NCBI GenBank assembly: GCA_004297765.1
Contig: SCTZ01000023.1
Location: 2,130-66,129 of the forward strand
DNA from: Chloroflexota bacterium
Lineage (GTDB): Bacteria; Chloroflexota; Dehalococcoidia; FW602-bin16
Direction of reading: 5' to 3'
DNA length: 64,000 nt
This document shows positions 11,942 to 35,072 of this stretch, one piece after another. Positions within the stretch are counted from its first letter, which is position 1. Each line of letters begins with the position of its first letter. The translations under genes and the position numbers were made by a program. The notes beneath the pieces were generated by a model. The model saw only the letters and a program-made list of their open reading frames with translations. It had not been told where the DNA came from and ran no database searches.

Positions 11942-12649
11942 CTATTTCAATCTCTCAACGAAGGCGATGATCTGCTTCAGCTCGTCGTCGCTCAATCGAT
12001 CGGGCGGGAAGGATGGCATCTTATCCTTCGGAGTGCGGACCTGCTTAGTCACTTGCTGCCCCGTGTAGCCGGCTAGCTTGGGTCCCACGCCGCCCTCCGC
12101 ATTCGCGCCATGACAACTGGAACACCCCTTGGCGGCAAAGAGAGCCTTCCCGGCCTCCGGTCCCTCAGCCCCGGTTGCGGAGGCCGCGGGGGCAGGTGTG
12201 TTGGGAGCGTGCTCGATAGCCTCTTTCCAGTCCTCTGCCGTGCCGTGCACCAGAAAGGTCATCAACTCGTAGATCTGCTCCTGGTTAAGGGAGCCACCCT
12301 CCTCGTCGCTCCAGGCCGGCATGACCGTGTTCGACCGCCCGCGGGCTATGGTCTTGGTGATGAGAGTTTGGGCCTTCTTTAGATCGTCGGCGTCGCCCTC
12401 TTTGTACTCATGGCGCTTGAGGAGATCCGGCAAGAGGAGAGACGGTCCGACTTGCCCCTTGCCGTCCTTGCCATGGCAGGCGCTACATAGTGACCCGAAG
12501 AGGAGCGCCCCGCGATGCGCGGATTCGGACTCCTGCCTCAGCGCCGCCAGAGCTTGCCGCTCTGGCTCTTGAATGGCGTAGAGTGCCAGAATGTTGAAGG
12601 CGAGCAGCGTCAGTACCAGGGCTACGACGACGCGCTTGTCAATCTTCAT
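11942..12649 (-). CDS. Membrane-anchored diheme class-I cytochrome c (acceptor subunit of the Rieske/b complex)
   Basis: N-terminal TM helix, CSACH...MPAW and CSSCH...MPSF. GAGGAG RBS before ATG 12649. Confidence 0.9.
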   Translation of the reverse strand: MKIDKRVVVALVLTLLAFNILALYAIQEPERQALAALRQESESAHRGALLFGSLCSACHGKDGKGQVGPSLLLPDLLKRHEYKEGDADDLKKAQTLITKTIARGRSNTVMPAWSDEEGGSLNQEQIYELMTFLVHGTAEDWKEAIEHAPNTPAPAASATGAEGPEAGKALFAAKGCSSCHGANAEGGVGPKLAGYTGQQVTKQVRTPKDKMPSFPPDRLSDDELKQIIAFVERLK

Positions 12650-12665
12650 ACGGTCAACGCTCCTC

Positions 12666-13214
12666 TTATGCCTTGACGGCGTGTTTGGGATCCCACGCCG
12701 ACCGTTGAATAGCCTTGTTCGGATCTGTGTCCACCACAACTTTGCCGTCCACGATGCTGACCGGGAAGATGTCCAGGGGCCGCGGCGCAGGGCCGGCCTT
12801 GCGCACTCCATACCGATTGAAGATGGAGCCATGGCACGGACAGTTGAACCGACCCTTATTTGCTAGATCATCCTCGGAGGCATCCTCAGGCTTCCACGGC
12901 ACGGTGCAGCCCAGGTGAGTGCACTTCTGATAGAGAGCGACAAAGCCATCGGGCGTATGTGAGAGGTAGAAGCGTCCTTCCTGGAAGCGGGTCACCGATC
13001 CCACGGGGAAGTCCTCTACGCGCCCAGCCACGATCTTGCCGCCAAACGCGCCCACCTTCTTCGCCTTGAAGAAGAGCAGGAATGCCGCCCCGCCCTCGGT
13101 CGCGACGGCCCCAACCGCGGCCAGAAGTGCGAAGCGCAGGAAGTGTTTCCGCGTGACTCGAATGCTCGAAAGATCGCCAGACGGCGATGTGTGATGGTTG
13201 TTCCGATTCGCCAA
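12666..13214 (-). CDS. qcrA: Rieske [2Fe-2S] subunit (QcrA/PetC-like)
   Basis: CTHLGC and CPCHGS boxes, Tat-like TRKHFL followed by a TM helix, and GPAPRPL. Confidence 0.95.
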   Translation of the reverse strand: MANRNNHHTSPSGDLSSIRVTRKHFLRFALLAAVGAVATEGGAAFLLFFKAKKVGAFGGKIVAGRVEDFPVGSVTRFQEGRFYLSHTPDGFVALYQKCTHLGCTVPWKPEDASEDDLANKGRFNCPCHGSIFNRYGVRKAGPAPRPLDIFPVSIVDGKVVVDTDPNKAIQRSAWDPKHAVKA

Positions 13215-13289
13215 GGCTTACCTCCAGGATCATCGTGACGCGCATGTCCCCAAGACAGCTCAGCGGGCATGCGCGCTACGCAGCATGAT

Positions 13290-14054
13290 TTACTCCGCCG
13301 CGTGTAACTGCCAGGGCCACACGAGGTGCATGCCGGGTCCGCGGAAGGCGGTCCCGATGATGGTCAGTGTCAGAAACGTGGAAACGAAGGCGAAGAACAG
13401 CGCGATCAGGATGTCGCGCGTGTTAGCGCCCTTCCAGATCTTGCGCACAAGCGCCACCTGGATGGCCGGTAGCCCGACCATGAGCCCCATCGGGATGACG
13501 TATTCAATGATGAACGTCGGAACCCCCAGGGGGTCAAGCATACGTCGGACGCCGACGAACTCGTTGAAGAGAACCATCACGACATTCAGCGCCGCGGCGT
13601 ATATCCCAGAGAACAATGCGATCTGCACGCCCCGGGACGAGTCGAAATAGCGCCCCACACCCTGAGGGCTCGTGTCCACGAAAGGGATGGCCATCAGCAA
13701 AAGGACCGCGGCGCCCGGGACGACCACGCCAGCCAGCGTCGGGTGCATGTGCACCAGGAGCTCCTGAAGGTTGAGGAAGTACCAGGGCGCCTTGGCCGGG
13801 TTCGGCGTGAGGCTGGGGTTGGCGTGGTCCACCAGTGGAGCGTTCACCAGCCACGAGACCGCCAGAAGCACGACCAGGAAGACAGCCGCCGCGATGAACT
13901 CCCAGATCACCAGGTGCGGCCACGTCATCTCGGTGTCGTCGACATCCTTCGCCAGCTGAGGGACAACTCCCTCCACCTCCACCAGGGCCAGTAGACGAAG
14001 GCGTTCCTCGTCGCCGTTGAGCGGTGGTCGATCGAGCCGAGTTGATGTTGTCAC
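13290..14054 (-). CDS. Cytochrome b6 subunit IV-like (PetD/QcrC-like)
   Basis: TWPHLV..E, APL..HANP..TPNPAKAPWYF (the PEWY-equivalent), LMAIPFVD, and several TM helices. Confidence 0.9.
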   Translation of the reverse strand: MTTSTRLDRPPLNGDEERLRLLALVEVEGVVPQLAKDVDDTEMTWPHLVIWEFIAAAVFLVVLLAVSWLVNAPLVDHANPSLTPNPAKAPWYFLNLQELLVHMHPTLAGVVVPGAAVLLLMAIPFVDTSPQGVGRYFDSSRGVQIALFSGIYAAALNVVMVLFNEFVGVRRMLDPLGVPTFIIEYVIPMGLMVGLPAIQVALVRKIWKGANTRDILIALFFAFVSTFLTLTIIGTAFRGPGMHLVWPWQLHAAE

Positions 14055-14240: not shown

Positions 14241-14975
14241 TTAGAGCGGTCCGGAGATGCCACCGTCCTTCCGAATGCGCCAGAAATGGATGGCCATGAA
14301 GATCGCGGCCAGTATCGGGAACCCGATTACGTGCAGAGTATAGAAGCGAATCAGCGCATTCGGTCCGACCTCGTAGGCGCCCAACAGCATTAGCTTCACC
14401 TCACTGCCGACGACCGGCACGTAGCTGGCCATATTTGTTCCCACTGTGATCGCCCAGAACGACAGTTGATCCCAGGGAAGCAGATATCCGGTGAAGCTGA
14501 GCAGAAAGGTGAGCGTTAGCAATATCACGCCCACCACCCAGTTGAACTCCCGCGGCGGCTTGTACGAGCCGGTGGCGAAGACCCGAACCATGTGCACAAA
14601 CACCGCCAGCACCATCCCATGGGCGGACCAGCGATGCATGTTGCGCAGCAACATGCCGAAGTTCACAGTCGTCTCCAGGTCCTTCATGTCCGTATAGGCA
14701 AGCTGCACAGCCGGACGGTAATAGAACATGAGGAGAACGCCTGTTATGGACAGAACCAGGAAGAGCAGGAAGGACAACCCTCCCATGCAGAAGGTGTAGC
14801 TGGCCCGCAGCCCATGGCGGCGCACCCGCACAGGATGCAGATGCAGAAACACGTTGCTGGTAACAGCCATGGACTGCGTCCGCAGGTCCTCCGGCCAACC
14901 GTGGCGGAAGATCGATCGCCACGGTCGACTGCGACGTAGCTGTCGACCTAACTGGTTTGCTGCGTTGTATAACAC
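14241..14975 (-). CDS. qcrB: Cytochrome b6-type N-terminal subunit (PetB/QcrB-like) with heme ci cysteine
   Basis: YTFCMGG (ci Cys), [57 protein letters not shown]. Confidence 0.95.
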
Positions 14976-15018
14976 GCCTTCCTCCCCGAAGTACGTCGTT
15001 CCTCAACTGAATGCTCTT

Positions 15019-15163: not shown

Positions 15164-16972
15164 TTATCTCTTTTGCCTTGCCGGCTGTATGGAACCGCGT
15201 GACGCCGCCTGGGATATCATCTGCGGCGCGCTCTCGACCGGCTCTGCCGGCGGGGGCGCCTCCCACTCGAACTGAACCATGCTGATCGCCTTGGTGGGAC
15301 AGCGATTCTCGCAGAGTCCACAGCGAATGCAGAGCTTCTCGTCGATCACCATAGCCGCCCCAGACGTGGGCAGATGTCCTCCTAAGGAGACTGCTGTTTG
15401 GTCATCGGTCGAAAGGGCTTCGATCGCCACCATGCGCAGCACACCCTGAGGGCAGGCGTCGATGCAGAGACCGCATAGGACGCAGCGGGTGGAGTCGATC
15501 ATCACGTTGATCTGGCACTGGAGGCAGCGGGTTGCCTCGGTCCGGGCCGCCGCAAGTGCCAAACCAAGCTCGACCTCTTCCTGCAGACTGGCACGCTCCG
15601 CTGTAGGCAGCGTGGGCATGGGCGCTCTTTGTGTGGTCAGATAATCCCCATCCCGTTGATAGCGCTGCAGCACCGTGAACTTCGCCCTTCGCTGCAGTCG
15701 CTGTCCTCCGTTGAGATAGGCGTCAATAGACGCCGAAACGGCGTGCGCATCGGCGATAACCCCGATAACGTCGCGTGGCCCGGTTATGAAGTCGCCGGCC
15801 GCGAAGACACCCGGCTTGTTGGTCATGAACGTGCGCTTGTCCACCTCCAAGCGATCCCAGCGCGACATCTCCAGCCCGATTTCCGGAGGCAGGAACGTGA
15901 TATCGGGTGACTGGCTCACCGCCGGGATGACCGTATCCACGGGGAGGATGAACTCGGACCCCGGAACAGGAACGGGGCGCCTGCGTCCGCTGGCATCAGG
16001 CTCCCCAAGTGCGTTGCGTACGCAGGCCAGGCCGACGATGCGGCTCTGATCGTCGGAATTGATGGCGGTGGGCGAGACCAAATAGTGGAAAGTGACCCCT
16101 TCCTCTTCGGCCTCCTCGATCTCCTCGGCTCCCACGGCCGCCTCGGCCGCCGTGCGCCGGTAGATAACGTGGACGGACTTGGCACCAAGGCGCACGGCGG
16201 AGCGTGCGCAGTCGATGGCGGTGTGCCCCAGACCAATCACGGCCACTCTCTCGCCCAGTCCCGTCGGCTCCCCCAGGTTCGCCCGGCGCATGAAAGTCAC
16301 CCCATGCAGTACACCGTCAAGGTGCTCGCCAGGAATCCCGAGCTTCTCCGGCTTGTGCGCTCCAGCCGCGATGAGCACAGCATCGAATATGCGGATCAGG
16401 TGATCCAACCCGATATCTTTGCCCACCGGCCTGTTCAAATGGATGTCTACACCCAGAGACTCCAGGTCCTGGATGATGGTATTCTGAATCACGTCGCGCG
16501 GGAGCCGGTAGGGTGGTATGCCGACACGCAACATGCCGCCAACGACCGGCAAGGCCTCGAAGATGGCTACTCGATAGCCCAACTGGGCCAGATCGCTTGC
16601 GGCGGTTAGCCCGGTGGGGCCGGCACCGACGATGCCAACCCGCTGACGCTTGCGTTCGATCGGAGTCCCGGGTCGCGTGCCCAAGCGGCCGAAATCGGCC
16701 GCGGAGCGCTTCAAGTGGCAGATCGAGACCGTCTCATCCAGATCGCGGCGCCGGCAAGCACCCTCACAGAGGCGCACGCACACGCGGCCAAGGATGGCGG
16801 GAATCACGTTGGCCGTGCGGTTCACTTCGTAAGCGTCGGCGAAGCGCCCCTGGGCGATCAGCGAGACGTACCGGGGAACGTCCGTGTGGGCCGGACAGCG
16901 ATCCTGGCACTTGATGTTCTTTGCGAACCATTCGGCGCCGGTCCGCACCAGCCGAAACCTGCCCTTGCTCAT
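15164..16972 (-). CDS. GltD/NfnB(SudA)-like FAD/NAD(P)H oxidoreductase with N-terminal Fe-S domain and C-terminal 2x[4Fe-4S] ferredoxin
   Basis: CQDRCPAH...GRVCVRLCEGAC, GAGPTG, GIPPYRLP, IGLGHTAIDCAR, YRRT, FAAGD, RCLQC, CVLCGLCIDACP, CIRCGLCENRCP. Confidence 0.95.
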   Translation of the reverse strand: MSKGRFRLVRTGAEWFAKNIKCQDRCPAHTDVPRYVSLIAQGRFADAYEVNRTANVIPAILGRVCVRLCEGACRRRDLDETVSICHLKRSAADFGRLGTRPGTPIERKRQRVGIVGAGPTGLTAASDLAQLGYRVAIFEALPVVGGMLRVGIPPYRLPRDVIQNTIIQDLESLGVDIHLNRPVGKDIGLDHLIRIFDAVLIAAGAHKPEKLGIPGEHLDGVLHGVTFMRRANLGEPTGLGERVAVIGLGHTAIDCARSAVRLGAKSVHVIYRRTAAEAAVGAEEIEEAEEEGVTFHYLVSPTAINSDDQSRIVGLACVRNALGEPDASGRRRPVPVPGSEFILPVDTVIPAVSQSPDITFLPPEIGLEMSRWDRLEVDKRTFMTNKPGVFAAGDFITGPRDVIGVIADAHAVSASIDAYLNGGQRLQRRAKFTVLQRYQRDGDYLTTQRAPMPTLPTAERASLQEEVELGLALAAARTEATRCLQCQINVMIDSTRCVLCGLCIDACPQGVLRMVAIEALSTDDQTAVSLGGHLPTSGAAMVIDEKLCIRCGLCENRCPTKAISMVQFEWEAPPPAEPVESAPQMISQAASRGSIQPARQKR

Positions 16973-17063: not shown

Positions 17064-17112
17064 AACCATGGCAACTGCACCTAATGAGGATCACTTGACC
17101 GGGTGGAATGTG

Positions 17113-17141
17113 TTGTAAAGGAAGTTAACCGCATTTACAAT
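17113..17141 (+). promoter_or_regulatory. Putative promoter of the two-component operon
   Basis: TTGTAA-N17-TACAAT, 21 bp before ATG 17163. Confidence 0.45.
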
Positions 17142-17162
17142 GGTGGAGAGGCACACTATAAG

Positions 17163-19397
17163 ATGACACGGCTGCTGTCCTGGCTCGACAATCTACCACT
17201 CCAGTCTCGCATCAGCCTACTGGTTTCGCTCGGGCTGATCAGCGTGCTGGCTCTGCTTACCGTTGTCGCTCTGCGAGTCGTGCAGGATACCACCGATCGC
17301 ATCGTGCACGAGCGACTGGTTATCACACAGATGACGGCCACGTATGTCGAAACCCTATTGCAAGAGGCCGTCAACGATCTCTCCAAAGCCACGACCTTCG
17401 CCTCCTTCAACCCGGAGCGAGGCAATCTATCCGAAGAAGAACACCTGATGGCCCATACTTACGGCCAGCTCGGCAACTTCACGCAGGGGTTGATCCTCGT
17501 GGACCGCCATGGCATCGTGGCGCTGGCCCATCCGCGCGAGCTCGCACCGATAGGTCACGACCTCTCCGGCGAGCCCTATATTCGGGATACGCTGGGGAAG
17601 GAGGGTCCCAATGTCTCCAACGCCTTCCGCAACCCCCTGACGGACAGGCCTACCGTGGCCGTGACCATCCCGGTACACAACAGTGACGGAGAGATCGTCT
17701 CCTACCTGACCGGGTTGATCGACCTGACCAGCCCCGCCTTCGCCGGATCGCTTACCTACGCCCAGAATCTCGGGCGAACCGGCCACGCGGACCTCCTCGA
17801 TGCCCGCGGCATCGTTGTGGCCTCCTCAGGGCCAGAGCACGTGCTGCACCCCGGCGAGCACCCTGAGTTCTACCAGCGCATGCTGCGGGAGCAGCGAGAG
17901 AATGTCGAGGCAACACCCTATGTCGAGGACGGACAGGTGGAAGGCGTGCATGTGATGGCCTTCGTACCGCTCAAGCTGGCTCCCTGGGGTATTGGACTGG
18001 GCGGCACAGAAGAAGAGACGTACGCACCGGTGCGCCGCGTGCAGACCGAGGCTAGCGTGGTCGCCGTACTATCCTTGTTGCTGGCACTTGTCTTCGTCTG
18101 GTTCACCACGCGCCGGGTCGTTCGTCCTGTTGAAGCGTTGATAACTGCTTCCGAGCAAATGGCCTCGGGCGATCTCTCCCGCCCGATCTCGATTTCGGGC
18201 GGTGGAGAGATAGGCCGTCTTGCCGGCACTTTTGACACGATGCGACTCAAATTGCAGAGCGCCTACCACGCCCTGAGAATGGAGAAGAGCCAGTATCAGG
18301 GCATCTTCCGCTCGATAGCAGATGCGGTGTTCACCGTCGATACCAAGCTATACATCACGTCGTTCAATCCTGCCGCCGCCCATATGCTAGGCTGGACTGA
18401 GAACGAAGTGCTCGGACGGACCTGCGAGGAGGCCCTAGGCTGTCAGGGCGCGAGCGGCGTCTTCTTATGTAAAACGGACTGGTCATCCACGTCCCACCTG
18501 GAGTCGTTGGAATTTCCAGCCAGCACGCGGCTAGTAGTGCACACGCGCTGTGGGGATCCAGTCACTGTAGGAGCGACCCAGGCGCCCATCTTCGACGACG
18601 ACGGGCACCTGGTCGGTCTGGTGCACGTGTTGCGCGATATCTCCGCCCAGGAGCAACTGGATCGCATGAAGGAGCAGTTCATCTCCAACGTGTCTCACGA
18701 GTTGCGCTCGCCCCTCGGCCACATCAAGGGCTACGCCACGACGCTGCTGCGCCGGGATGCTTCCTGGGACGAAAAGACGCAGCGGCGTTTCATCGGCGAG
18801 ATCGTGCAAGGCAGCGAGCGAATGCAGAAACTGGTGAACGAGCTCCTCGACATGTCACGACTTGAAGCCGGCCGCTTTGCCATCGAGAAACAGCCAATCC
18901 AGGTAGGGCACGTTGCCAGAGCAGCCGTAAAGACAGTGCGGTCGCTGTCCAAGAAGCACAAGTTCGTCGTCAGCATGCCGCAGAGTCTGCCGCGGGCGCA
19001 GGCGGACCCCCATCACATCGAGCAGGTGCTGGTCAATCTGCTGGAGAACGCGGTTAAGTACTCGCCTGAAGGCGGCTGCATCAGCGTCTTAGGCAGCACG
19101 GAGGACGGCACGGTGGTCGTCTCCGTCGCAGACGAGGGCATCGGCATCGCCGAGGATCAGTGGGAGCGCGTCTTCGAGCGATTCCAACGCGTGGACAGCA
19201 GCCTGACTCGTCAAGTGGGCGGCGTGGGACTCGGACTTTCCATCTGTCGTAAGATTATCCAAGCCCATGGCGGACGAATCTGGGTCGAAAGCAAGATAGG
19301 TCAGGGCAGCACGTTCTATTTCAGCCTGCCCATTTTCAGACAAGTAGCTCAGCGCGATCAGGAGTCGCTCGCACACAAGGGAGGTGTTCTGCCATGA
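17163..19397 (+). CDS. Sensor histidine kinase (TM-dCache-TM-HAMP-PAS-HisKA-HATPase)
   Basis: Two TM helices, HAMP EIGRLAGTFDTM, PAS FNPAAAHMLGW, SHELRSPL, NLLENAVKYS, DEGIGI, GVGLGL. Confidence 0.95.
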   Translation: MTRLLSWLDNLPLQSRISLLVSLGLISVLALLTVVALRVVQDTTDRIVHERLVITQMTATYVETLLQEAVNDLSKATTFASFNPERGNLSEEEHLMAHTYGQLGNFTQGLILVDRHGIVALAHPRELAPIGHDLSGEPYIRDTLGKEGPNVSNAFRNPLTDRPTVAVTIPVHNSDGEIVSYLTGLIDLTSPAFAGSLTYAQNLGRTGHADLLDARGIVVASSGPEHVLHPGEHPEFYQRMLREQRENVEATPYVEDGQVEGVHVMAFVPLKLAPWGIGLGGTEEETYAPVRRVQTEASVVAVLSLLLALVFVWFTTRRVVRPVEALITASEQMASGDLSRPISISGGGEIGRLAGTFDTMRLKLQSAYHALRMEKSQYQGIFRSIADAVFTVDTKLYITSFNPAAAHMLGWTENEVLGRTCEEALGCQGASGVFLCKTDWSSTSHLESLEFPASTRLVVHTRCGDPVTVGATQAPIFDDDGHLVGLVHVLRDISAQEQLDRMKEQFISNVSHELRSPLGHIKGYATTLLRRDASWDEKTQRRFIGEIVQGSERMQKLVNELLDMSRLEAGRFAIEKQPIQVGHVARAAVKTVRSLSKKHKFVVSMPQSLPRAQADPHHIEQVLVNLLENAVKYSPEGGCISVLGSTEDGTVVVSVADEGIGIAEDQWERVFERFQRVDSSLTRQVGGVGLGLSICRKIIQAHGGRIWVESKIGQGSTFYFSLPIFRQVAQRDQESLAHKGGVLP

Positions 19398-20098: not shown

Positions 20099-20157
20099 CC
20101 TTCCTGCAACCTTGGCGCCCACATCGTTACCTCGCAGTAACCTTGGGCCGCTACCAT
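20095..20157 (+). promoter_or_regulatory. Second promoter with tandem OmpR-type boxes
   Basis: GTAACCTTCCTGCAACCTT (20095), GTTACCTCGCAGTAACCTT (20126), 7 bp, TACCAT (20152). Confidence 0.7.
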
Positions 20158-20194
20158 GACTACCAACGAACTCTGCAAGCAAGGATGGCGCTGC

Positions 20195-20773: not shown

Positions 20774-20812
20774 TTGACGTGTGTCAGTACACCGGTAACA
20801 CCGCAGTAGTCC
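20774..20812 (+). promoter_or_regulatory. Possible FNR/CRP-family site plus a degenerate OmpR box upstream of the cytochrome operon
   Basis: TTGAC-GTGT-GTCAG (20774-20787) and GTAACACCGCAGTAGT (20795). Confidence 0.3.
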
Positions 20813-20847
20813 ACCACAGCTCGCAATTCGTTTCGTGGAGGAGAAGT

Positions 20848-24265: not shown

Positions 24266-24356
24266 CGCGGGGTTCCTGAATCCGGAGTTGCCAGCACAGG
24301 GAAAGAGTGATCGGTGGAAAGAAGGTGAAGGTTCCGTGGAAGCAAAAGGAAAGACG

Positions 24357-26487: not shown

Positions 26488-28095
26488 ATGAGACGGGGAA
26501 TACTCGTGATCATGGGGCTAGCATTTCTGCTGCTCCTGTCCGTGCCGGCCGTAGCCCTGGCGAACGGCGGTCCCCACGGCGACTACAAGGACGCCACGAA
26601 CCTGACCGACAAATGCGCCGGCTGTCATCGGCTTCACCAGGGTCTCAGCCAAGGCAAGTTGCTGAAAGCTGAGAGCCAGTACGCTCTGTGTCTCACCTGT
26701 CACAACGGCGCCGGATCCGTCCTGAACGTTCTCGACGGCGTGCGCGTGGCGGGCGTGGGCTACGACCCCGCTGCTTCGCTGCTCACTCTCGACAGCGGCG
26801 CGGTACCCCGCGACAACAGCACGACCAACATGTACCTGAGCCTGGCGCCCTACGGCGACCTTTCGACTTCGCCCGGGAAGAATGGCTATATCACTCTTCG
26901 CATCAAGAACAAGACCGGCAGCGGCATCACGGCCAGCCTGGCCGTGACGGACACGCTCCTGCCGGGAGCCATTGCGTCGGACTTCGACGCGTCGGACTTC
27001 GTATCCGCGACCACGAGCACGGCGAGCCCGACCAATGATGCGGAGAACCCGGGCAACCCCACCAGCACGGTGATCAATAGCGTGAGCGTGCTCGCCAACG
27101 ACGTCGCCTACGTTCGTCTGCGGGTCAAGCCGACCGGCACCGCTACGGCGGGCGACAGCATCCTGAGCGCCATCACGGTCAGCGCCGGTGGTGAGAACGC
27201 CGTCGTCAAGGCCCAGACCAGGGTCGGCGATCAGGCGCTGCCCATCCTCAACGGTGGCGGCTTCAACTACGTCGGCACCAAGGTCACCACCTCTCGCCAC
27301 AACGCAAACCCGGCGGACAATACGCTGAGCCCGTGGGGCTTCGGTGGACAGAACCAGTCCCCCAACTACGCGGCCGGCGGCATGGGAAAGGGTGCCAACA
27401 CGGGCGAAAACCCGAACACCCTCTCCGAGCCCCTGCAGTGCACCAGTTGCCACAACCCGCACGGTACCAGCAACTACCGCCTGCTGAAGCAGAGCATCAA
27501 CGGCGTGACCGTCGACGTCAAAGCGTACAACGACACGACCAACGCCATGGTGATCGACGAGGGAGCGCGCGGTCTCGAAGCCGGAGCGCCCGCTGATAAG
27601 TACACCAAGGAGTACTACGCCAGCTACTCCAGCAACAGCCAGGGCTTCGCCAGCTTCTGCGGCGCCTGCCACACGGCCTATCCGTCCGACGGGGCAAGCC
27701 TGGGCGTCGCCAGCAACTCGGCCTTCGGCTCGGTGATGCACTATCGCCACCGCACGGAGATGCCGTATTCAAACTGGACGAACCCGAACACGGGGCCCAC
27801 GCAGAACCCGGAGACCAACCCGATTACGGGCACCGATGGACCCGGCGGCGCTCCTAAGCTCTTCCCGACGCTGCGGCTGGCCAGCAAGGACAGCACCAGC
27901 CTCAACAACCACGTGACCTGTCTGACGTGCCACCGCGTTCACGGCACCAGCGCAGATATGTCCGGCTATGCCCTCAAGAAGCAGTTTGGGGGACTGGCCG
28001 ACAACGACATCACGCCGTCGCAGATCGACGAGAGCCGCACCACGCTGCTCTATACCGACAACCGCGGCATGTGCGAAGCCTGTCACCAGTGGTAG
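26488..28095 (+). CDS. Secreted hexaheme cytochrome c, OmcS/CwcA-like motif layout, with an inserted Ig-like domain
   Basis: Signal peptide VALA-NGGPHG. Heme motifs CAGCHRLH, CLTCH, CTSCHNPHG..NYR, CGACH, CLTCHRVHG and terminal CEACH, with GGGF..H between hemes 2 and 3. Strong AGGAAGGAGG RBS. Confidence 0.85.
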   Translation: MRRGILVIMGLAFLLLLSVPAVALANGGPHGDYKDATNLTDKCAGCHRLHQGLSQGKLLKAESQYALCLTCHNGAGSVLNVLDGVRVAGVGYDPAASLLTLDSGAVPRDNSTTNMYLSLAPYGDLSTSPGKNGYITLRIKNKTGSGITASLAVTDTLLPGAIASDFDASDFVSATTSTASPTNDAENPGNPTSTVINSVSVLANDVAYVRLRVKPTGTATAGDSILSAITVSAGGENAVVKAQTRVGDQALPILNGGGFNYVGTKVTTSRHNANPADNTLSPWGFGGQNQSPNYAAGGMGKGANTGENPNTLSEPLQCTSCHNPHGTSNYRLLKQSINGVTVDVKAYNDTTNAMVIDEGARGLEAGAPADKYTKEYYASYSSNSQGFASFCGACHTAYPSDGASLGVASNSAFGSVMHYRHRTEMPYSNWTNPNTGPTQNPETNPITGTDGPGGAPKLFPTLRLASKDSTSLNNHVTCLTCHRVHGTSADMSGYALKKQFGGLADNDITPSQIDESRTTLLYTDNRGMCEACHQW

Positions 28096-28147: not shown

Positions 28148-28356
28148 CACCCGGCTTCCTGTGCGTGGACTTTCCACCGAAGCACGGTGCAAAGCCCGCT
28201 CACGGAGCGGCAAAGAGGGAAGGACAGCCGCATCTTTGCTGCTTTCAGGCGGAAGCCAAACACTATTCTATCACGTAGAGGCGCCTCCTGGCATTGGAGA
28301 CCCGCCGGAGGCGCTATCCGGTTCTACCCAAGACAGAAGGGGGAAACGTCGTTCCA

Positions 28357-29538
28357 ATGAGGGCACCCGGGCAACCCGAATCCACTACGCACGCCGGGAG
28401 ACAGCCGAATCAGCGACCGCGATCGGACCGGGAGGATGCAAACCCCGCTCGCTCGGTCGCGCTCCCCTGGCACACGCGGGCGCTTTGCAGGTCCCTCGTG
28501 CGCGCTCACTGCCCTCTCCTCAGCCAGCTTTTTCCTCCACGGGCCCTGGTGTTCGCGCTGGCGGTGATTCTCGCCATCTCTGTTGTCATACTTGCACAGT
28601 CTCTTGGGTTGGCCTCGGGCAGGGAGACTCATGGACCGAGTTCTCTTCCAACCCCCGGCGAAGGTGGCGAGATGCGCTTCCTCTTCAGCCTCACAGGACG
28701 CATCGATCAGTATCTGGATACCCCTCTGGCCGTCACCGTGAGCCGGCGTGGGCTGGTCTACGTGGCCGATGGGGGTTACCGGTCCGTCCAGGTATTCTCA
28801 CCCGACGGCGTCTGGCAGCGAAGCATAGGTCGCGCGATCGTGGCAGAGCCTCGGCCGGGTGATCTGGTCTATCCGCTCGGCGTGGCCGTGGACGATCAGG
28901 ACAATTGCTATGTCTCAGACAACGTGACCGGGCGCATCTCTGTTTTCGACTCAACCGGTGCTTTCCTTCGCTACTTCGCCGAGGACGAGGCTGGTGCCAA
29001 GCCCTTCGGCTTGCCTGCCGGTCTCTTCTTCCGCAACGGTTTGCTCTACGTGAACGACGTCGGCAACCACCAGGTTATGGCGCTGCGGTCCGACGGCACC
29101 ATAGAGCGCGTGTTCGGACGGGGACGTGGGAGTGAGACCGGGCAGATGCAGTACCCCAATTTCTCCTGGGTGGACGAGTGGGGACGCGTCTACGTGGCCG
29201 ATTCCAACAACAACCGTATCCAGATCTTTGGCTCCGACGGCGCTTTCCAGGGCGTGTTTGCGAGCGGACACGAGGGTCCCGAGACCGGCGTGATGCGCGG
29301 AATCGCCCTGGACTCCCGCGGCGACATGCACGTGGTCGCCACGATGGAGCATCGCGTGTTGGTCTTCGACCAGGACGGACAGTTCATGTATTCGTACGGA
29401 CGTGAGGGAGATGGTCCGGGTCAACTGGGCTTTCCGAACGGATTGGCCGTCGCCGGCGACCAGGTGTACGTGGCGGACCGGGCCAACGGCCGGGTTCAGG
29501 TCTGGTCTCTGGGCGCCAAACTAGAAAATACTCGATAA
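28357..29538 (+). CDS. Membrane-anchored NHL-repeat beta-propeller protein 2
   Basis: TM helix LVFALAVILAISVVILA, then six NHL-like blades (YPLGVAVD, YVADSNNNRIQIF, FPNGLAV...YVADRANGRVQV). The start position is uncertain. Confidence 0.9.
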   Translation: MRAPGQPESTTHAGRQPNQRPRSDREDANPARSVALPWHTRALCRSLVRAHCPLLSQLFPPRALVFALAVILAISVVILAQSLGLASGRETHGPSSLPTPGEGGEMRFLFSLTGRIDQYLDTPLAVTVSRRGLVYVADGGYRSVQVFSPDGVWQRSIGRAIVAEPRPGDLVYPLGVAVDDQDNCYVSDNVTGRISVFDSTGAFLRYFAEDEAGAKPFGLPAGLFFRNGLLYVNDVGNHQVMALRSDGTIERVFGRGRGSETGQMQYPNFSWVDEWGRVYVADSNNNRIQIFGSDGAFQGVFASGHEGPETGVMRGIALDSRGDMHVVATMEHRVLVFDQDGQFMYSYGREGDGPGQLGFPNGLAVAGDQVYVADRANGRVQVWSLGAKLENTR

Positions 29539-29542: not shown

Positions 29543-32395
29543 GTGACCATGATGGGAAGCCATCGACGCTTGCACGTATTCATCTTTCATTATTTCGCTG
29601 CCATGGTCGCGGTGGCGCTGGGCTTCTTGGTGCCGCTGGCGCCACTCGCGGTTCCGGTCGTCTACGCGGCCGAAACCCATTATCTCCACGCCGCCGCCGT
29701 CACGCTGGGAAGCACCACCTACGGAACGGTCAACACCACCGGCCTCGCGGGCACCTTGACGGAGGCCTCCGCCAACATTAACCAGAGCACCTGGCAGACC
29801 TTCTCCTTCGGCGGAAAGAACATGTGGGTCTCCGACGCAACGCCGTCGGGGGCCACCTGGACCCTAACGGGCAGTTGGAGCTTCACCATCTTCACTCGAC
29901 AGACCCAATCCGAAAGGGCCCAGTTCAACTTTCGCGCCCGCATCTACAAGCTCGACACGAACAACAGCGCCACGCTGCTGGCCACGTCCGGACAGAGCGG
30001 GCAGTTGAAGCCCTTCAACACCTATGGCAGCAGCATCACCTGGTCCCACAACCTGGCTAGCACCGTGCTCAGCGCGGGCGAGCGCTGGGGCGTGCAATTC
30101 CAGGCGCTGGCCGACCGCGACGAAGCCAGTCAGTTCGCCTACCTGGGCTTCGACGTCTCCGCACGAAACAGCTCGGTGACCGTTCCCAACTCCAAGCCCG
30201 TGGCGCCGACATCCACGCCAACGTCCACAGCTACCTCGACTCCGGCGAGCACGGACACCGCAACTGCCACGGCCACCGCTACCGACACCGCGACCGCGAC
30301 CGCGACCGCGACCGACACCGCCACGGCGACCGACACAGCCACCGTCACCGCCACCGCAACCGACACGCCACCAGGTCCCACGGCAACGCCGACCAGCACG
30401 CCTTTGCCCACCTCCACGCCAACCCGCACGGCGACACCCGCGGCCAGCTCCACCTCAGCCGCCACAGCCACGGCAACGTCTACTGCCACTCCGACCTCGA
30501 CCGCCACTGACACGGCAACCGCCACACCGACACTCACCGCCACGTCCACGGCCACAGCTACGTCCACCAGCACACCCATCGTACCGGAGTTGGATTATCT
30601 GCACGCTATGACGATGACAATCGGGAGCAGTACCTTCAGGACGGCCAACACCAGCCTCCCGGCCGGCACGCTAGCCGAGGCCTCGACGTCGGTCAACAAA
30701 GACGCTTGGCAGAACTTCGCGTATGCAGCCACCAACATGTGGATCTCCGACGCCACGCCCGATGGCACGACGTGGGTGCTGACCGGTCAATGGACGTTCC
30801 GGGTCCACGTCCGGCAATCCGTCTCGGGACCCCGTTTCTGGTTCCGTGCCCTCCTTTACAGGATCAGCATCGGCGGCACGGCGACCCTGATGGCCACCAC
30901 CGCCCAGACGAATCGGATCGACACCGTGGGTACCGCCTACGCCGGTACGGTAACCAACCCCATCACGTGGAACTACACGCTGGCCACCCAGGTGCTGAAC
31001 CCTGGCGAATCCTGGGGCGTGCAGATCCAGGTGTTGGCCGACCAGAATACTGGCGGCAGCGTCTACCTGGGTTTCGACTCGACGGACCAGAACAGCAACA
31101 TCACCGTCCCTAGCGGCAGGCCCGCGGCGGTCGGTCCTACGTCAACGGCAACGGCCACCACCACGCCGGGCACGCCCACGGTCACGCCGACACCCACCAC
31201 TACCGGAGTCGGCACGCCCGGCCCGGCCACGCCAACGCCGCAGAATCCCGCCCATAACGGGAACGTTTCCTGGAGAGACGGTTTGCCGAGCATCTGCGCG
31301 GGATGCCACCGCGTGCATACCTCGCCGGCCTCCAAGTCGCTCCAGGCTCGTTGGCCGGAAGAAGCTACCTGCTTCGTCTGCCACGACGGCAGCGGGGCGC
31401 CGAACATCAAGGCCCAGTTCGACAAGACCTACAAGATGCCTATAACCGCCACGGCCGGCATCCACTCCACCGCGGAGTACACGACCAAGGATCCCGCCAG
31501 TTTCTCTGGCACCAGCCGCCACGTGGAATGCACCGACTGCCACAACCCGCACTATGCCGGGAAGGTGACCCATATCAACGGCACCAACTACGCCGCCGGT
31601 CCGCAGCAGGGAGTTTGGGGCGTGGCCGTGAACAACACGGCCGCATGGACGGCTCCCGAGTACTCCACGGTCAACCAGGTGACCCACGAGTACCAGGTAT
31701 GCTTCAAGTGCCATTCTTCGTGGGCCTACGGCACCAACCCGCCCCTTTCGCCCAGCGGCGGCTTCTCCCAGACCAACCAGCCAAAGGAGTTCAACACCCT
31801 CAACCCGGCCTACCATCCGGTGGAGGCGCCGGGCAAGAACCCGTTCACGGGGGCCAACGGCAGCTATGCCAGCTCGCTCATCAACGGCTTCAACCCCGGC
31901 AGTACCATGTTCTGCACCGATTGCCATCGCAGCGAGACTCCAACCGAGCTCAAGGGTCCCCACGGCTCGCAGTCGCCCTTCATTCTGCAGGGTAACTGGG
32001 ACCGCACCACCGGGCAAAACCCCGGCAACCGAGGCATGCCCAGCACATCCAACCATCTGTGCTTCAAGTGCCACGACTACGATCGCTACACGAACTTCGA
32101 CGCCAACCGCAACAACGGCTGGCAGACCGGGTTCTCGCAGAATGGAGGCGAGAACCTGCACGTGCGCCATGTTGGCAACGGGCGCAACAAGCTCAACAAC
32201 GATCAACCGATCGTTTGCATGGATTGCCACGTGGCCGTTCCTCACGGCTGGCAGCGCGAACATCTGCTGGGCTTCGACGGCGACGGCGCGCCCTACATCA
32301 ACCGCATTGGCGGTCTCAGCACCATCGACAGTTGGGCCAGCAGCGGGAACTGGGATCGTCCAAACTGCCAGACGGCCATGGGCAATTGCAGGTAG
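29543..32395 (+). CDS. Secreted heptaheme cytochrome c with two beta-sandwich domains and Thr-rich stalks
   Basis: Signal peptide ending VYA, two HYLHA/DYLHA...YLGFD repeats and (TA/TP)n linkers. Heme motifs CAGCH, CFVCH, CTDCH, CFKCH, CTDCH, CFKCH and CMDCH. Confidence 0.9.
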   Translation: MTMMGSHRRLHVFIFHYFAAMVAVALGFLVPLAPLAVPVVYAAETHYLHAAAVTLGSTTYGTVNTTGLAGTLTEASANINQSTWQTFSFGGKNMWVSDATPSGATWTLTGSWSFTIFTRQTQSERAQFNFRARIYKLDTNNSATLLATSGQSGQLKPFNTYGSSITWSHNLASTVLSAGERWGVQFQALADRDEASQFAYLGFDVSARNSSVTVPNSKPVAPTSTPTSTATSTPASTDTATATATATDTATATATATDTATATDTATVTATATDTPPGPTATPTSTPLPTSTPTRTATPAASSTSAATATATSTATPTSTATDTATATPTLTATSTATATSTSTPIVPELDYLHAMTMTIGSSTFRTANTSLPAGTLAEASTSVNKDAWQNFAYAATNMWISDATPDGTTWVLTGQWTFRVHVRQSVSGPRFWFRALLYRISIGGTATLMATTAQTNRIDTVGTAYAGTVTNPITWNYTLATQVLNPGESWGVQIQVLADQNTGGSVYLGFDSTDQNSNITVPSGRPAAVGPTSTATATTTPGTPTVTPTPTTTGVGTPGPATPTPQNPAHNGNVSWRDGLPSICAGCHRVHTSPASKSLQARWPEEATCFVCHDGSGAPNIKAQFDKTYKMPITATAGIHSTAEYTTKDPASFSGTSRHVECTDCHNPHYAGKVTHINGTNYAAGPQQGVWGVAVNNTAAWTAPEYSTVNQVTHEYQVCFKCHSSWAYGTNPPLSPSGGFSQTNQPKEFNTLNPAYHPVEAPGKNPFTGANGSYASSLINGFNPGSTMFCTDCHRSETPTELKGPHGSQSPFILQGNWDRTTGQNPGNRGMPSTSNHLCFKCHDYDRYTNFDANRNNGWQTGFSQNGGENLHVRHVGNGRNKLNNDQPIVCMDCHVAVPHGWQREHLLGFDGDGAPYINRIGGLSTIDSWASSGNWDRPNCQTAMGNCR

Positions 32396-32450: not shown

Positions 32451-32571
32451 GCCCAGGGCTGAAGCCACTGGGCTGAGTCAACGAAGCCCGCCGAGGCGGG
32501 CTGACTACCGCGCCCAGCCCCTCGGAAGGGGCTTCGTTGTCTCAGCCCGCTCGCTTTAGCGGCGGACGGGC
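32451..32571. repeat. Composite hairpin element (GGGCTGAAGCC-type REP-like)
   Basis: GGGCTGAGTCAACGAAGCCC...GGGCTTCGTTGTCTCAGCCC inverted arms with nested hairpins. Confidence 0.7.
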
Positions 32572-32584
32572 GGTGGACAACAGG

Positions 32585-34162
32585 ATGCAACCAAGGACAA
32601 TTGGTACAAGAATGCTCAAGGCGGTATCGACGCAAACAGCAATGGCGAACCAACAAGCAACACGGTCGCGGGTCACACACATCGCAGCTCTCCTCCGCCT
32701 GTTGCGCTCGCGCGAGCTGGCGCTGGTATTGCTGGGGGTGATCCTGGTTGGCGCCGTCTCCGGCACCCTGGTGCCGCAGAAGGCTCTGGTCTCACCCGCC
32801 GATTTTCAGAATTGGCAGACGGAGCACGCCCGATGGGCCGAGCTCGCCAACGGCCTCGGTCTCACCCGTGTGTACAACTCCTGGTGGTTCCTCACGCTCC
32901 TGGGACTGCTCTTCCTGAGTCTGCTGGTCTGCACAGTCTCCAACTGCCGGCGGACCTGGCGTATCGATCGGCATCGCCACCGTGAGGAGTGCGACGTTCC
33001 TCGCTCCGTCAGGAGGGACGGAGGGCACCTGACCATCCAGATGAGCGACACGCAACAGCCCCAACCGACTTCAGACGCCCATCCCCTCGTCCACGCCCCC
33101 TTCCAGCGAGCCTCGGTCGTGTTGCGTCAGGTGGGCTACCGCGTGCGTCCGGTCGCCAGCGGAAGCGCCCTCTTTGCCGGAAAGCGCCGCTACGGAATCT
33201 GGGGCTCGGCGATATTTCATCTTGGCCTCATGATCGTCCTACTGGGCGGCGCCTATAGCGGGGGCGGCAAGATGGCCGGCTACTTCGAGCTGGCGGAGGG
33301 TCAGACCTTCACGGAGCAACGCGGTGGCTACCTGCAAATCGATGAGGGACCGCTCTTTCGAGAGCAGCATGCAAGCTTCCGGCTACGCCTGGACCAACTG
33401 CACACGCGCTACTGGGACAACGGCACGCTGCGCGAGATGTCGAGCGCCGTGACCGTGCAAGCTCCTTCGGGCGAGACCAGAACGGCCCTGCTTGGCCCGG
33501 GACGACCGCTGAGCTTCTTGGGCGCGTCTATCTACCAGGCCAACCAGCATGGCTTCGCCGTCCTCCTCTCACTGAAGGATGCCGCGGGCAACACAATCAG
33601 CTCAGGTTTCGTCAATTTCGCAACACCGTCCGAGCCCACCCATCCCGCGACCAACCGCTTTCCTCTCCCCGGGGTCTCCCTCCAAGCCGAGGCGGACTTC
33701 TATCCGGCCCCACAGGCAGAAGCCCTCGACGTGGAGAACTGGTCGCAGGCGCGGCCGGACGAGTCCTGGCTGTATCTGTTCCTGCGTGATGAACAGGAGC
33801 GACTGGTTTTCCAGGGGCCGTTGGCCCTCGGTGACAGCATAACGTTCAATGGATACGCCTTGAGCTTTAAGCAGGTCTCCCGATGGGCAGGTTTCCCCGT
33901 GGTGCGAGATCCGGGTCTACCCATAATCTTCACCGGGTTCGGCCTGTGCATCCTGGGAGCCGCCATTATCTACCTCTGGGTCCCCAGGCGGATCTGGGTC
34001 TGGGTCGAGCGCACGGCAGAGGGGAACCGCGCGCTCTGCATCGGCGGTCGGGCCGACAGGTATCAAGCATCGATGGATGAAGAGGTAGCGGAGCTCGCGA
34101 CACGGATGATACTCTTGCACGATAGTTCCTTCGTGATTGGCCAGACCGAGTCGGTCGCCTGA
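32585..34162 (+). CDS. resB: Cytochrome c biogenesis protein ResB/Ccs1 (system II)
   Basis: LRSRELALVLL..GTLVPQ, LGLTRVYNSWWF..SLLVCT, FHLGL, RDPGLPIIFTG...PRRIW. The start position is uncertain. Confidence 0.9.
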   Translation: MQPRTIGTRMLKAVSTQTAMANQQATRSRVTHIAALLRLLRSRELALVLLGVILVGAVSGTLVPQKALVSPADFQNWQTEHARWAELANGLGLTRVYNSWWFLTLLGLLFLSLLVCTVSNCRRTWRIDRHRHREECDVPRSVRRDGGHLTIQMSDTQQPQPTSDAHPLVHAPFQRASVVLRQVGYRVRPVASGSALFAGKRRYGIWGSAIFHLGLMIVLLGGAYSGGGKMAGYFELAEGQTFTEQRGGYLQIDEGPLFREQHASFRLRLDQLHTRYWDNGTLREMSSAVTVQAPSGETRTALLGPGRPLSFLGASIYQANQHGFAVLLSLKDAAGNTISSGFVNFATPSEPTHPATNRFPLPGVSLQAEADFYPAPQAEALDVENWSQARPDESWLYLFLRDEQERLVFQGPLALGDSITFNGYALSFKQVSRWAGFPVVRDPGLPIIFTGFGLCILGAAIIYLWVPRRIWVWVERTAEGNRALCIGGRADRYQASMDEEVAELATRMILLHDSSFVIGQTESVA

Positions 34163-34179
34163 GGCGACCGACTCGGTCT
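34143..34179. repeat. Perfect palindrome centred on the resB stop codon
   Basis: AGACCGAGTCGGTCGCC-TGA-GGCGACCGACTCGGTCT. Confidence 0.85.
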
Positions 34180-34229
34180 CGTGGTCGCGATCACGAGCTC
34201 CCTGATAGGAAAGAGCATGAGAGGAGATC

Positions 34230-35072
34230 ATGGACCCGCTTAATCTGTCAGCGTATCTCTACTGGGCCGCGGTGACTCTTTACGCGATCGCTACCGCGGC
34301 CTTCATGGTTGGGCTGTTCTGGCGCCGGCACGACGTGATCGTGTGGACGACCTGGCTGGTGGCCGGCGCTCTCCTGCCACATGGCGCGGCCATCTTGCTC
34401 CGCTGGATAATTGTCGGGCATGGGCCGTACATCAACCGCTACGAGGTTCTCTCATCCGACGTGTGGGTGGGTCTGGCGGCCTTCCTCGCGCTTCAGCTCC
34501 GCTTTCCGCGCCTGCGGCTGGTCGGGGCGGCCATCGCGCCCATCGCGCTGTTGCTCATGGGAATCTCCGCCCTGTCGACAGCCGACGTGGAGCCACTCCC
34601 CCCATCCCTGCGAAGCTATTGGCTTGTGATCCACGTGGGGTTCGCCAAGCTAGCCTTCGGCAACATCCTGCTCGCTTTCGGACTTGGCGTGCTCTTCCTG
34701 CTCAAAGAGCGCTCGCAACGCACGAGAGCGAACCATCATTTCTACGAGCGATTGCCAGTACTTGCCCGAATGGACGAGCTGAGCTACCGATTCACGGGAC
34801 TGGGGTTCGTCTTCCTGGCCGTCATGATCATGTCAGGCTCCATCTGGGCCAACGACGCCTGGGGCAATTATTGGAGCTGGGACGCCATCGAGACATGGTC
34901 TCTAGCCACCTGGCTCTTCTACGGCATCAACCTACACCTGCGGGCCACCTATCGCTGGCGCGGTCCACGAGCGGCCTGGCTGACCATTGCGACCTTCGCC
35001 TTCATGGCAATCACCCTGAAGGGCGTGGCGTACATAACTCCAGGCGCACACGTTGAGTACCTGGCGAAGTAA
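34230..35072 (+). CDS. ccsA: Cytochrome c biogenesis protein CcsA/ResC (system II heme lyase)
   Basis: GHGPY.NRYE, LRSYWLVIHV, WWD domain GSIWANDAWGNYWSWDAIETWS, and a terminal H. Confidence 0.95.
   Translation: MDPLNLSAYLYWAAVTLYAIATAAFMVGLFWRRHDVIVWTTWLVAGALLPHGAAILLRWIIVGHGPYINRYEVLSSDVWVGLAAFLALQLRFPRLRLVGAAIAPIALLLMGISALSTADVEPLPPSLRSYWLVIHVGFAKLAFGNILLAFGLGVLFLLKERSQRTRANHHFYERLPVLARMDELSYRFTGLGFVFLAVMIMSGSIWANDAWGNYWSWDAIETWSLATWLFYGINLHLRATYRWRGPRAAWLTIATFAFMAITLKGVAYITPGAHVEYLAK

Follow-up and report, generated by a model that had tools for sequence, protein, structure and literature searches.

How do electrons pass through the thick wall of a cell without an outer membrane? This is poorly understood, and to our knowledge cytochrome nanowires have so far been described in diderm bacteria and in archaea. 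The question is raised here by a stretch of 64,000 nucleotides of a Chloroflexota genome (assembly GCA_004297765.1, contig SCTZ01000023.1, positions 2,130 to 66,129; hereafter the window), which carries between its positions 11942 and 35072 an island of genes for a Rieske/cytochrome b6 complex, an NAD(P)-linked flavoprotein and five c-type cytochromes. A preliminary description of the island had interpreted it as a complete, self-contained pathway between the cytoplasm and the exterior, including an OmcS-like nanowire module. Our analysis partly supports this interpretation. Judged from its gene content and from related loci, the region is composed of two separately conserved modules, a left one (11942-16972) and a right one (17103-35072). 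The hexaheme cytochrome of the right module is, by profile comparison, a remote relative of OmcS, and an OmcS-related module beside a b6 complex represents a testable candidate electron route across a single-membrane envelope.

Two modules and their junction

The island comprises 17 genes, 5 on the minus strand and 12 on the plus strand, in a divergent arrangement (open reading frame (ORF) list, Pfam, NCBIfam and motif counts). All the elements named in the preliminary description are present, together with a gene for a stand-alone receiver protein that it had not listed, and they do diverge around a histidine kinase (HK) and response regulator (RR) pair, as in L177, a metagenome contig that is the closest relative found. 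The reported total of 24 CxxCH motifs in five cytochromes was reproduced (2+8+1+6+7), the other 12 genes having none. With Pfam E-values reaching 2e-107 in the island, chance matches are excluded. The cytochromes fall into two classes: the diheme, octaheme and monoheme proteins are of class I (His/Met), while the hexaheme and the heptaheme are paired-CXXCH multihemes. Domain scans detected no porin-like domain in any island ORF, in line with the reported lack of a porin or MtrB-type gene. The structural proteins of the right half are considered extracytoplasmic because all of them have N-terminal hydrophobic segments (1 or 2 each); the flavoprotein has 0.

On the link between the two halves, synteny gives a divided picture. 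On the one hand, L177 repeats the whole junction in the same divergent order. Its amino-acid identities with the window on one strand are 61% for the cytochrome c, 78% for the Rieske protein, 70% for subunit IV (SUIV), 78% for b6 and 74% for the flavoprotein; on the opposite strand they are 57% for the HK, 66% for the RR, 47% for the receiver protein (REC) and 59% for the octaheme, at which the contig ends. A gene order kept at this divergence, across a divergent promoter region, speaks for selection or recent common ancestry, and a chimeric join in the assembly of the window is excluded. On the other hand, among the loci examined, the halves adjoin only in the window and in L177; elsewhere they are apart. 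These loci were drawn from hexaheme relatives searched with one genome per species: at least 445 of 595 pattern-matched stretches encode one, and counts of the core genes refer to the best 79 loci among these. All synteny counts come from samples of mutually related genomes and are not independent.

Several of these loci weigh against a functional link between the two modules. Left-half genes are found in 0 of the 40 right-module loci of at least 15 kb, and the sole left-half match in all 79 loci is a cytochrome b6-like gene in a short locus (L068). Starting from the octaheme gene, the left half is present in 1 of 11 loci (1 of the 5 with at least 5 kb upstream); in the more distant octaheme loci, the upstream position is taken by ResB/CcsA or by another dCache-type HK/RR. 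In genome G043, the b6 operon and the cytochrome module are on separate contigs, the operon 1.78 Mb into its own, and in both G043 and G045 the operon is located among housekeeping genes, with no flavoprotein. Genomes G041 and G042 have the module, yet their best cytochrome b matches are merely 37-41% identical. Moreover, the host of the window has four other modules with TPR, NHL and hexaheme genes, none of which has an adjacent b6 complex. A self-contained island is therefore not supported, since the core of its right half occurs alone in all 40 long loci and the b6 operon is found elsewhere in G043 and G045.

These distributions would also be expected if two unrelated systems simply stood side by side, the b6 complex being an ordinary complex III for heme-copper oxidases (at least three COX1 genes are found in the host genome) and the cytochrome module using another membrane component. 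In other lineages such components vary, as seen in the 54 loci of at least 12 kb. In loci of the Actinomycetota type, the core is next to a TAT-type molybdopterin oxidoreductase (16/54) or to NiFe hydrogenase subunits (14/54 for the small subunit, and 12/54); in loci of the Anaerolineae type, it is next to a cytochrome b561 (11/54). However, the same observation can be turned around: modules elsewhere often carry a membrane or redox partner gene, and the b6 complex is the only candidate found in the window. Furthermore, L177 retains the junction, including the same HK-RR-REC set, despite an amino-acid identity of merely 57-78%, and the octaheme, the monoheme and the diheme cytochrome c all consist of class-I c-type domains. 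We regard a chance neighbourhood of unrelated systems as possible rather than probable, and the gene orders leave functional coupling of the two halves roughly in balance.

The hexaheme cytochrome and its portable core

The secreted hexaheme cytochrome (26488..28095, plus strand) was proposed to be akin to OmcS, and profile comparison bears this out. Its six CxxCH motifs, at residues 43, 68, 318, 391, 478 and 529, are colinear with those of OmcS. When a profile of 53 family sequences was compared with solved structures, OmcS (6ef8_A) was the top of 19 hits (E 9.2e-9, 38.1 bits), while the other cytochromes were matched at E 0.001 or worse. The significant stretch (profile 252-471 vs. OmcS 128-405) spans heme motifs 3-6, and the flanking signatures CxSCHxPHG and CLxCHRxHG, as well as the terminal CxxCH, align too. 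Two results count against this kinship. Heme motifs 1-2 are colinear with those of OmcS, but their stretch is worth 2.1 bits and is individually insignificant, although it carries the equivalence with His16 discussed below. In addition, a single-sequence phmmer search of the PDB with the hexaheme finds nothing, including OmcS.

Twelve His residues are invariant in the 53 family sequences, six within CxxCH motifs and six others, which is enough for six bis-His hemes. This leaves little room for multihemes acting as enzymes on soluble compounds (nitrite, hydroxylamine or sulfite, for example). Such a function is suggested by a weak Pfam/NCBIfam similarity to NrfB/NrfH-type motifs, but six bis-His hemes would offer no open site, no CxxCK or other unusual heme motif was found in the island multihemes, and the best solved relative is OmcS and not NrfA (E 0.13). 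We therefore hold an enzymatic role to be very improbable.

We take the cross-subunit ligand of heme 5 in OmcS to be His16, paired with His332, a pairing said to go back to Wang et al. in 2019. In the family-profile alignment, His332 falls on the heme-5 motif, and His50 of the hexaheme, three residues after the first CxxCH, aligns with His16 within the 2.1-bit stretch. According to PMC7096707, heme 5 of OmcS takes its distal His from the adjacent monomer. If the hexaheme stacked head to tail like OmcS, His50 would ligate heme 5 of the next subunit.

Structure prediction was informative mainly for an Ig-like beta-sandwich insert between hemes 2 and 3 (about residues 112-251, i.e. ~140 residues), which matches Ig-like domains with Z up to 10.8 (VIA-align, 48,161 chains). 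The AlphaFold2 (AF2) model of the window hexaheme (pLDDT 69.2) is confident solely in this insert. Searches with this model (Foldseek against the PDB, and VIA-align) matched the insert alone, OmcS not being among the matches listed; in the model as in these searches, the heme core was barely tested. The AF2 model of a homologue lacking the insert (pLDDT 52.9) is too poor for fold use, and in the ESM Atlas the matches are only unnamed paired-CXXCH clusters with scores of at most 0.76.

Self-association was then predicted for P0045, a 396-aa homologue (residues 25-396, two copies, four hemes included). Its score is 0.47, vs. 0.00 for the best of three controls. Among proteins of solved structure, 20 of 30 one-chain pairs and 1 of 23 single chains attain the mark used, these counts being approximate (own alignment and ligand). 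Contact agreement between the runs is at least 91% and the pLDDT of the partner is at least 90. In the predicted interface the two copies meet head to tail, with residues 255-396 of the first against residues 28-79 of the second; the C-terminal half thus meets the N-terminal heme-1 region of the partner, as an open-ended polymer needs. This model supports self-binding but does not show it, and the pass may reflect memory of the solved OmcS filament. It also tells against a direct transfer of the result that the run was made on a homologue without the Ig-like insert and not on the protein of the window. Filament formation by the hexaheme may nevertheless be envisaged.

The probability that there is no polymer falls somewhat short of even. 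The hexaheme and the heptaheme would then be single multihemes embedded in the wall or exposed at the surface, as in Thermincola, and the NHL and TPR proteins would be scaffolds. No structure model confirms an OmcS-like fold, the ~140-residue insert is of the kind found in surface and S-layer proteins, and the long linkers of the heptaheme could span the wall alone. The profile kinship with OmcS, the invariant His at the position of His16 and the head-to-tail prediction for P0045, with its reservation, argue for a polymer.

The hexaheme gene is surrounded, on the same strand, by genes for a TPR protein (24288..25316; TPR families) and for two NHL beta-propellers (25313..26341, PF01436 E 5.4e-31; 28294..29538, PF01436 E 7.3e-22), all three proteins being membrane-anchored by one transmembrane segment. 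They are followed by the gene for a large secreted heptaheme protein of 950 aa (29543..32395, plus strand), whose 7 CxxCH motifs lie at residues 585-892, in its C-terminal domain. The N-terminus of this protein contains two repeat domains that are 45% identical (residues 44-219 and 349-526, ~175 residues each, no Pfam family), and the linkers between the repeats are rich in Thr, Ala and Pro. The family of its C-terminal domain has at least 3975 members and has in common with the hexaheme family only a 41-column paired-CXXCH start. Compared with the PDB, the heptaheme gave no match apart from the low-complexity linker.

This core is widespread. The 79 loci are spread over Chloroflexota (Anaerolineae, Thermoflexia, Dehalococcoidia and unclassified), Coriobacteriia, other Actinomycetota and, in a few cases, bins labelled as Eubacteriales. 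Of these loci, 65 carry an NHL gene, 56 TPR plus NHL and 30 a heptaheme-like gene; among the 40 loci of at least 15 kb, 39 have an NHL gene and 35 a TPR gene. TPR and NHL genes lie upstream on the same strand in 31 of the 63 loci with at least 3 kb upstream, mostly in Chloroflexota. By contrast with this shared core, the partners vary by lineage, and the class-I multi-domain cytochrome and ResB/CcsA are confined to the nearest group of the window (octaheme 5/79, ResB 4/79, CcsA 6/79). All 8 metagenome relatives in which the sequence continues downstream have TPR and NHL genes after the octaheme gene. The molybdopterin oxidoreductase, which comes with an Fe-S subunit, and the hydrogenase neighbours described above suggest, from gene proximity, that H2 or another substrate could be coupled to extracellular electron transfer in these monoderms. 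Two further core neighbours, of 548 aa and 345 aa and with no Pfam family, are conserved in the Coriobacteriia/Actinomycetota loci (L032-L089). This compact OmcS-related TPR-NHL-hexaheme set across Chloroflexota and Actinomycetota offers well-defined objects for cryo-EM and genetic work in organisms that are abundant in the subsurface and in digesters.

The four other sets of the host genome are carried by contigs C58 (40.8-47.4 kb), C79 (5.1-8.2 kb), C126 (26.4-30.7 kb) and C199 (4.0-17.2 kb). Three tandem hexaheme-like genes are observed on C58, and a class-I multi-domain cytochrome on C199. The partner genes of other lineages (b561, molybdopterin oxidoreductase, hydrogenase and others) were not found next to any of these four modules.

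The b6 operon, its host and the direction of electron flow

On the minus strand, the left module starts with the gene for a cytoplasmic NAD(P)-linked Fe-S flavoprotein of 602 aa (15164..16972; PF14691 (Fer4_20), PF07992 (Pyr_redox_2) and PF00037), followed by those for cytochrome b6 (14241..14975; PF00033 E 2.4e-46), the PetD-like subunit IV of the split cytochrome b (13290..14054; PF00032 E 5e-10), a Rieske 2Fe-2S protein (12666..13214) and a diheme cytochrome c of class I, which is anchored in the membrane and serves as c subunit of the complex (11942..12649; 2 CxxCH; PF13442 E 2.1e-24, PF00034 E 6.7e-21). Subunit IV has five distinct hydropathy peaks (six windows, of which two overlap). The Rieske protein has the motifs CTHLGC and CPCHGS and one transmembrane segment; it matches the NCBIfam b6-f Fe-S subunit with 65.9 bits (E 2.8e-18), under the curated cut-off of 154. 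The ORF of the diheme cytochrome spans 11942-12832, but its start is likely at 12649 because the 5' extension of the ORF overlaps the Rieske gene. This protein has a single N-terminal hydrophobic segment (residues 8-26), and its gene is syntenic in L177, L108, L109 and L110. Split b6, subunit IV, Rieske protein and c-type cytochrome are thus encoded in one operon, with the same order in at least 20 other loci. Operons orthologous to that of the window are common in Chloroflexota (b6 63-71% identical), and a b6 match of E 1e-50 or better occurs in 172 of the 401 genomes sampled. Besides this operon, two small and similar contigs of the host assembly, C252 and C253, each encode a Rieske protein, a cytochrome b and class-I cytochromes c, with in addition ResB/CcsA on C252 and a COX1-like gene on C253; they may represent a second complex, or that of another organism (the genome has 8.95% contamination).

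The flavoprotein combines an NfnB/GltD-like part with a C-terminal 2x[4Fe-4S] domain, its ferredoxin parts being FwdF/HdrA-like; its score against NF009410 (432.8 bits) is below the cut-off of 516. Its stop codon lies 188 bp from the start of b6 on the same strand. A search from the b6 side found the flavoprotein gene directly upstream of b6, then subunit IV and Rieske genes, in 10 of 29 b6 loci. Coordinate matching located flavoprotein-b6 pairs 100-120 bp apart in 20 genomes, to which the b6-side loci add 3. The adjacency therefore occurs in at least 23 of 400 other Chloroflexota genomes, belonging to at least 5 families, as well as in L177. The opposite search weighs against a link between the two genes: in 28 of the 29 best-scoring flavoprotein orthologue loci, the flavoprotein stands apart from b6, and in six of the stand-alone loci its neighbours are unrelated genes. 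Each set of 29 loci includes a genome flagged as unpublished (G082 in the flavoprotein set, G266 in the b6 set), without which the counts are 27/28 and 10/28. Seen from the flavoprotein side alone (linkage in 1/29 loci), the flavoprotein had first been considered unlinked to b6, an idea that was dropped after the b6-side search showed recurrent pairing. In one further locus, L112 (G393:C6:62195-65775), the flavoprotein gene is followed by b6 alone and then by a response regulator gene, with no SUIV or Rieske gene. This arrangement hints that the functional partner of the flavoprotein could be the b6 subunit itself. With the flavoprotein-Rieske/b6 arrangement recurring in Chloroflexota, more organisms become available for testing the proposed NAD(P)-linked bifurcation.

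The right module starts with its regulators, all on the plus strand. The sensor histidine kinase (17103..19397; dCache, HAMP, PAS, HisKA and HATPase domains in Pfam) has an extracytoplasmic dCache domain flanked by two membrane-spanning regions (three overlapping hydropathy windows). It is followed by an OmpR-type response regulator (19394..20098; PF00072 and PF00486) and by the stand-alone receiver-domain protein missing from the preliminary description (20156..20602; PF00072 E 1.1e-15). We read this two-component system as belonging to the cytochrome module. Next comes the octaheme cytochrome (20779..23445; 8 CxxCH; PF13442 E 2.1e-107 in 8 stretches), made of eight class-I (His/Met) domains on linkers rich in Ser, Ala and Gly, with an MP motif in each of the 8; its N-terminal segment ends in a lipobox-like AMAC. 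The monoheme class-I cytochrome c (23459..24265; 1 CxxCH; PF00034 and PF02433) is membrane-anchored, with two N-terminal transmembrane segments and a linker rich in Pro, Thr and Ala. At the other end of the module, two genes for System II cytochrome c maturation, ResB (32537..34162; PF05140 E 4.1e-63) and CcsA (34230..35072; PF01578 E 2.2e-41), complete the plus strand of the island; further copies of ResB exist elsewhere in the host genome.

The host genome (5.6 Mb, 99.89% complete, 8.95% contamination) carries the window on a 106-kb contig, and the named homologues of the window proteins come from Chloroflexi/Chloroflexota and Dehalococcoidia metagenome-assembled genomes. No match to Omp85 or LpxC was found in this genome, while diderm control genomes were positive. 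This absence, together with homologues in monoderm phyla, fits a cell without an outer membrane, as had been supposed. The host is probably an aerobic or facultative heterotroph, judging from its gene content: it has at least three COX1 genes, cytochrome bd was not found in the genome, and neither was RuBisCO, to which the search for carbon fixation was confined. The sole sequencing run containing the stretch is a groundwater metagenome (DNA), which may be its source.

Taking these data together, a right-module chain of extracytoplasmic cytochromes, fed by or feeding the b6 complex across a single-membrane wall, seems to us to have an even chance of being correct. The b6 complex would oxidize menaquinol and pass one electron via the Rieske protein to the membrane-anchored diheme c, and from there to the lipid-anchored octaheme and/or the anchored monoheme c. 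The next carrier would be the secreted and possibly polymerized bis-His hexaheme, with the anchored NHL and TPR proteins as its assembly or anchoring factors. From the hexaheme, electrons would reach the heptaheme, whose linkers and two repeat domains would suit a wall-spanning or surface location, and the chain would end at, or start from, an extracellular redox partner. The core would thus have been lengthened at both ends in this lineage, by the octaheme lipoprotein and the monoheme inside and by the heptaheme outside, and the right module would be served by its own ResB/CcsA and by its dCache histidine kinase with the OmpR regulator. The flavoprotein might dock on the cytoplasmic face and connect NAD(P)(H) with the b/c_n hemes, in line with the proposal for anammox complexes. 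It could deliver the second electron to NAD(P)+ or else, from the cytoplasmic face, supply the complex with electrons of NAD(P)H.

For the direction of flow, our estimate leans slightly towards outward, with inward flow the less likely and flow in both directions quite unlikely. Outward flow is favoured because of the apparent heterotrophy of the host (no RuBisCO) and the role of OmcS. On general redox grounds, His/Met cytochromes near the membrane and bis-His cytochromes outside favour the opposite direction: class-I His/Met cytochromes are usually higher in potential than bis-His multihemes, so that outward flow from the octaheme to the hexaheme may run uphill, which speaks against the scheme described above. 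In an inward pathway, electrons from Fe(II), minerals or partner cells would enter the bis-His cytochromes, fall to the His/Met cytochromes and then to the oxidases, and a part would be driven uphill to NAD(P)H by a reverse b6 complex and the flavoprotein. The order of the cytochrome classes, the presence of oxidases and the groundwater source agree with such a pathway. So does a bc-type complex beside an NAD(P)-linked flavoprotein, which resembles the uphill branch of iron oxidizers, i.e. petI/rus in Acidithiobacillus. However, without RuBisCO there is no sign of Calvin-cycle lithoautotrophy, and OmcS itself works in reduction; we consider this inward pathway rather unlikely. The b6 complex may also simply serve aerobic respiration, given the heme-copper oxidase genes, which likewise speaks against the scheme.

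The strongest version of the scheme is an OmcS-type filament adapted to a monoderm envelope and hard-wired via the octaheme to the flavoprotein-Rieske/b6 complex, with menaquinol electrons split between an extracellular acceptor and NAD(P)+, or the reverse in uptake. We judge it improbable. If true, extracellular electron exchange would directly set the NAD(P)H pool, under one envelope-sensing two-component system.

The borders of the island (11942-35072) appear sound because the flanking genes, baeRF-like and CARDB proteins on the left and an RND transporter and giant surface proteins on the right, are all unrelated to it. GC content is even across the island. A promoter and terminator scan of positions 11800-21000 gave sites no more numerous than in shuffled sequence. 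On the left, a baeRF family 10 (bacterial eRF1-like) protein is encoded at 10825-11916 (plus strand), directly adjoining the diheme cytochrome gene. On the right, an AcrB-type RND transporter (35219-38749, minus strand; PF00873 E 1.6e-223) adjoins CcsA and contains an inserted LysM peptidoglycan-binding domain (residues 309-357), an unusual fusion for a genome without outer-membrane markers. Further downstream are two giant ORFs on the minus strand, one of 2142 aa (40145-46573) and one of more than 5769 aa that runs off the window (46689-63998). In view of their BACON_2, Laminin_G_3, MG2, HYDIN-like Ig, CARDB and He_PIG domains, these ORFs probably encode very large proteins of the cell surface, or adhesins.

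Comparison with known systems

No characterized system was said to have this combination of genes. Each half nevertheless has a precedent, in anammox bacteria, in the omcS-NHL neighbourhood of Geobacter, in Dethiobacter or in Coriobacteriales. Like OmcS of Geobacter sulfurreducens, the window hexaheme has six CxxCH in the same order, CxxCHxxH at hemes 1, 3 and 5, and the last CxxCH at the extreme C-terminus. The Geobacter studies place an NHL protein, GSU2505, next to omcS (PMC9070056) and a two-component system nearby (PMC9070056, PMC10599522); in the window too, NHL genes stand beside the hexaheme gene, which two of them flank, and a two-component system is present. The accessory genes of the osc operon are proposed to fold, secrete and shape the OmcS filament, according to PMC13194489, citing Shen et al. 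2025. Domain scans revealed no OscH-type prolyl isomerase or OscEFG-like channel in the island, PPIase, ABC and ATPase domains being found in 0 of the 17 ORFs. Unlike the situation in Geobacter, the window host has no outer membrane by the markers above, the TPR and both NHL proteins are membrane-anchored, and an Ig-like insert separates hemes 2 and 3. MtrCAB and Pcc systems have an outer-membrane beta-barrel as a sheath around a periplasmic multiheme, which has no counterpart in an island without porin-like domain and a genome without Omp85 or LpxC match.

For the left module, the closest parallel is found in anammox bacteria. According to PMC12954380, the NAD(P) reductase of the Rieske/b6 complexes Kuste4569-4574 and Kustd1480-1485 resembles NfnB and polyferredoxins and is proposed to take up the low-potential electron released when quinol is oxidized. 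The window has likewise a split b6, subunit IV, Rieske protein and NfnB-like poly-[4Fe-4S] flavoprotein in one cluster, a likeness drawn from the description and not from the Kuenenia sequences. However, its in-operon cytochrome is a class-I diheme and not a hexa- or octaheme, and there is no HAO-like partner. Compared with the octaheme c subunit of anammox complexes, the window octaheme is encoded on the opposite strand, past the regulators, and consists of class-I domains in a row. The host also differs, being presumably a Chloroflexota aerobe or facultative aerobe. The b6c complexes of heliobacteria and Firmicutes share with the window b6, subunit IV, Rieske protein and diheme c in a menaquinone-type monoderm, but the window has a flavoprotein gene directly upstream and the order b6-SUIV-Rieske-c. 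The Cys of 'FCMGG' presumably sits at the position of the heme c_n Cys.

Among monoderms, Dethiobacter alkaliphilus encodes multihemes with NHL and TPR proteins, flavoproteins and regulators, its repeat proteins being proposed to aid cytochrome secretion and orientation, according to PMC10376724. Unlike the window, clusters of this type hold, by description, octa- to decaheme proteins of the OmhA/OcwA/MtoA kind; an OmcS-family subunit, a class-I octaheme or a Rieske/b6 complex is not reported in the portions available for the Dethiobacter, Thermincola and Carboxydothermus clusters. A Coriobacteriales genome from a bioanode community encodes an OmcS homologue that is 28% identical and has all six CxxCH, according to PMC7399161. 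This organism is a monoderm, as the window host appears to be; the report concerns a single gene and describes no TPR/NHL context, and the family described here includes many Coriobacteriia loci.

In the survey-type papers examined on OmcS with Chloroflexi/Chloroflexota, this gene set is not described, the survey of Shen et al. 2025 and its supplements lying outside the comparison. Four features thus appear to be new: a monoderm-type core with membrane-anchored TPR and NHL proteins and different partners per lineage, an eight-domain cytochrome of class I, the occurrence of the flavoprotein-b6 arrangement across Chloroflexota, and the junction of two modules, each resembling a known system, in one lineage.

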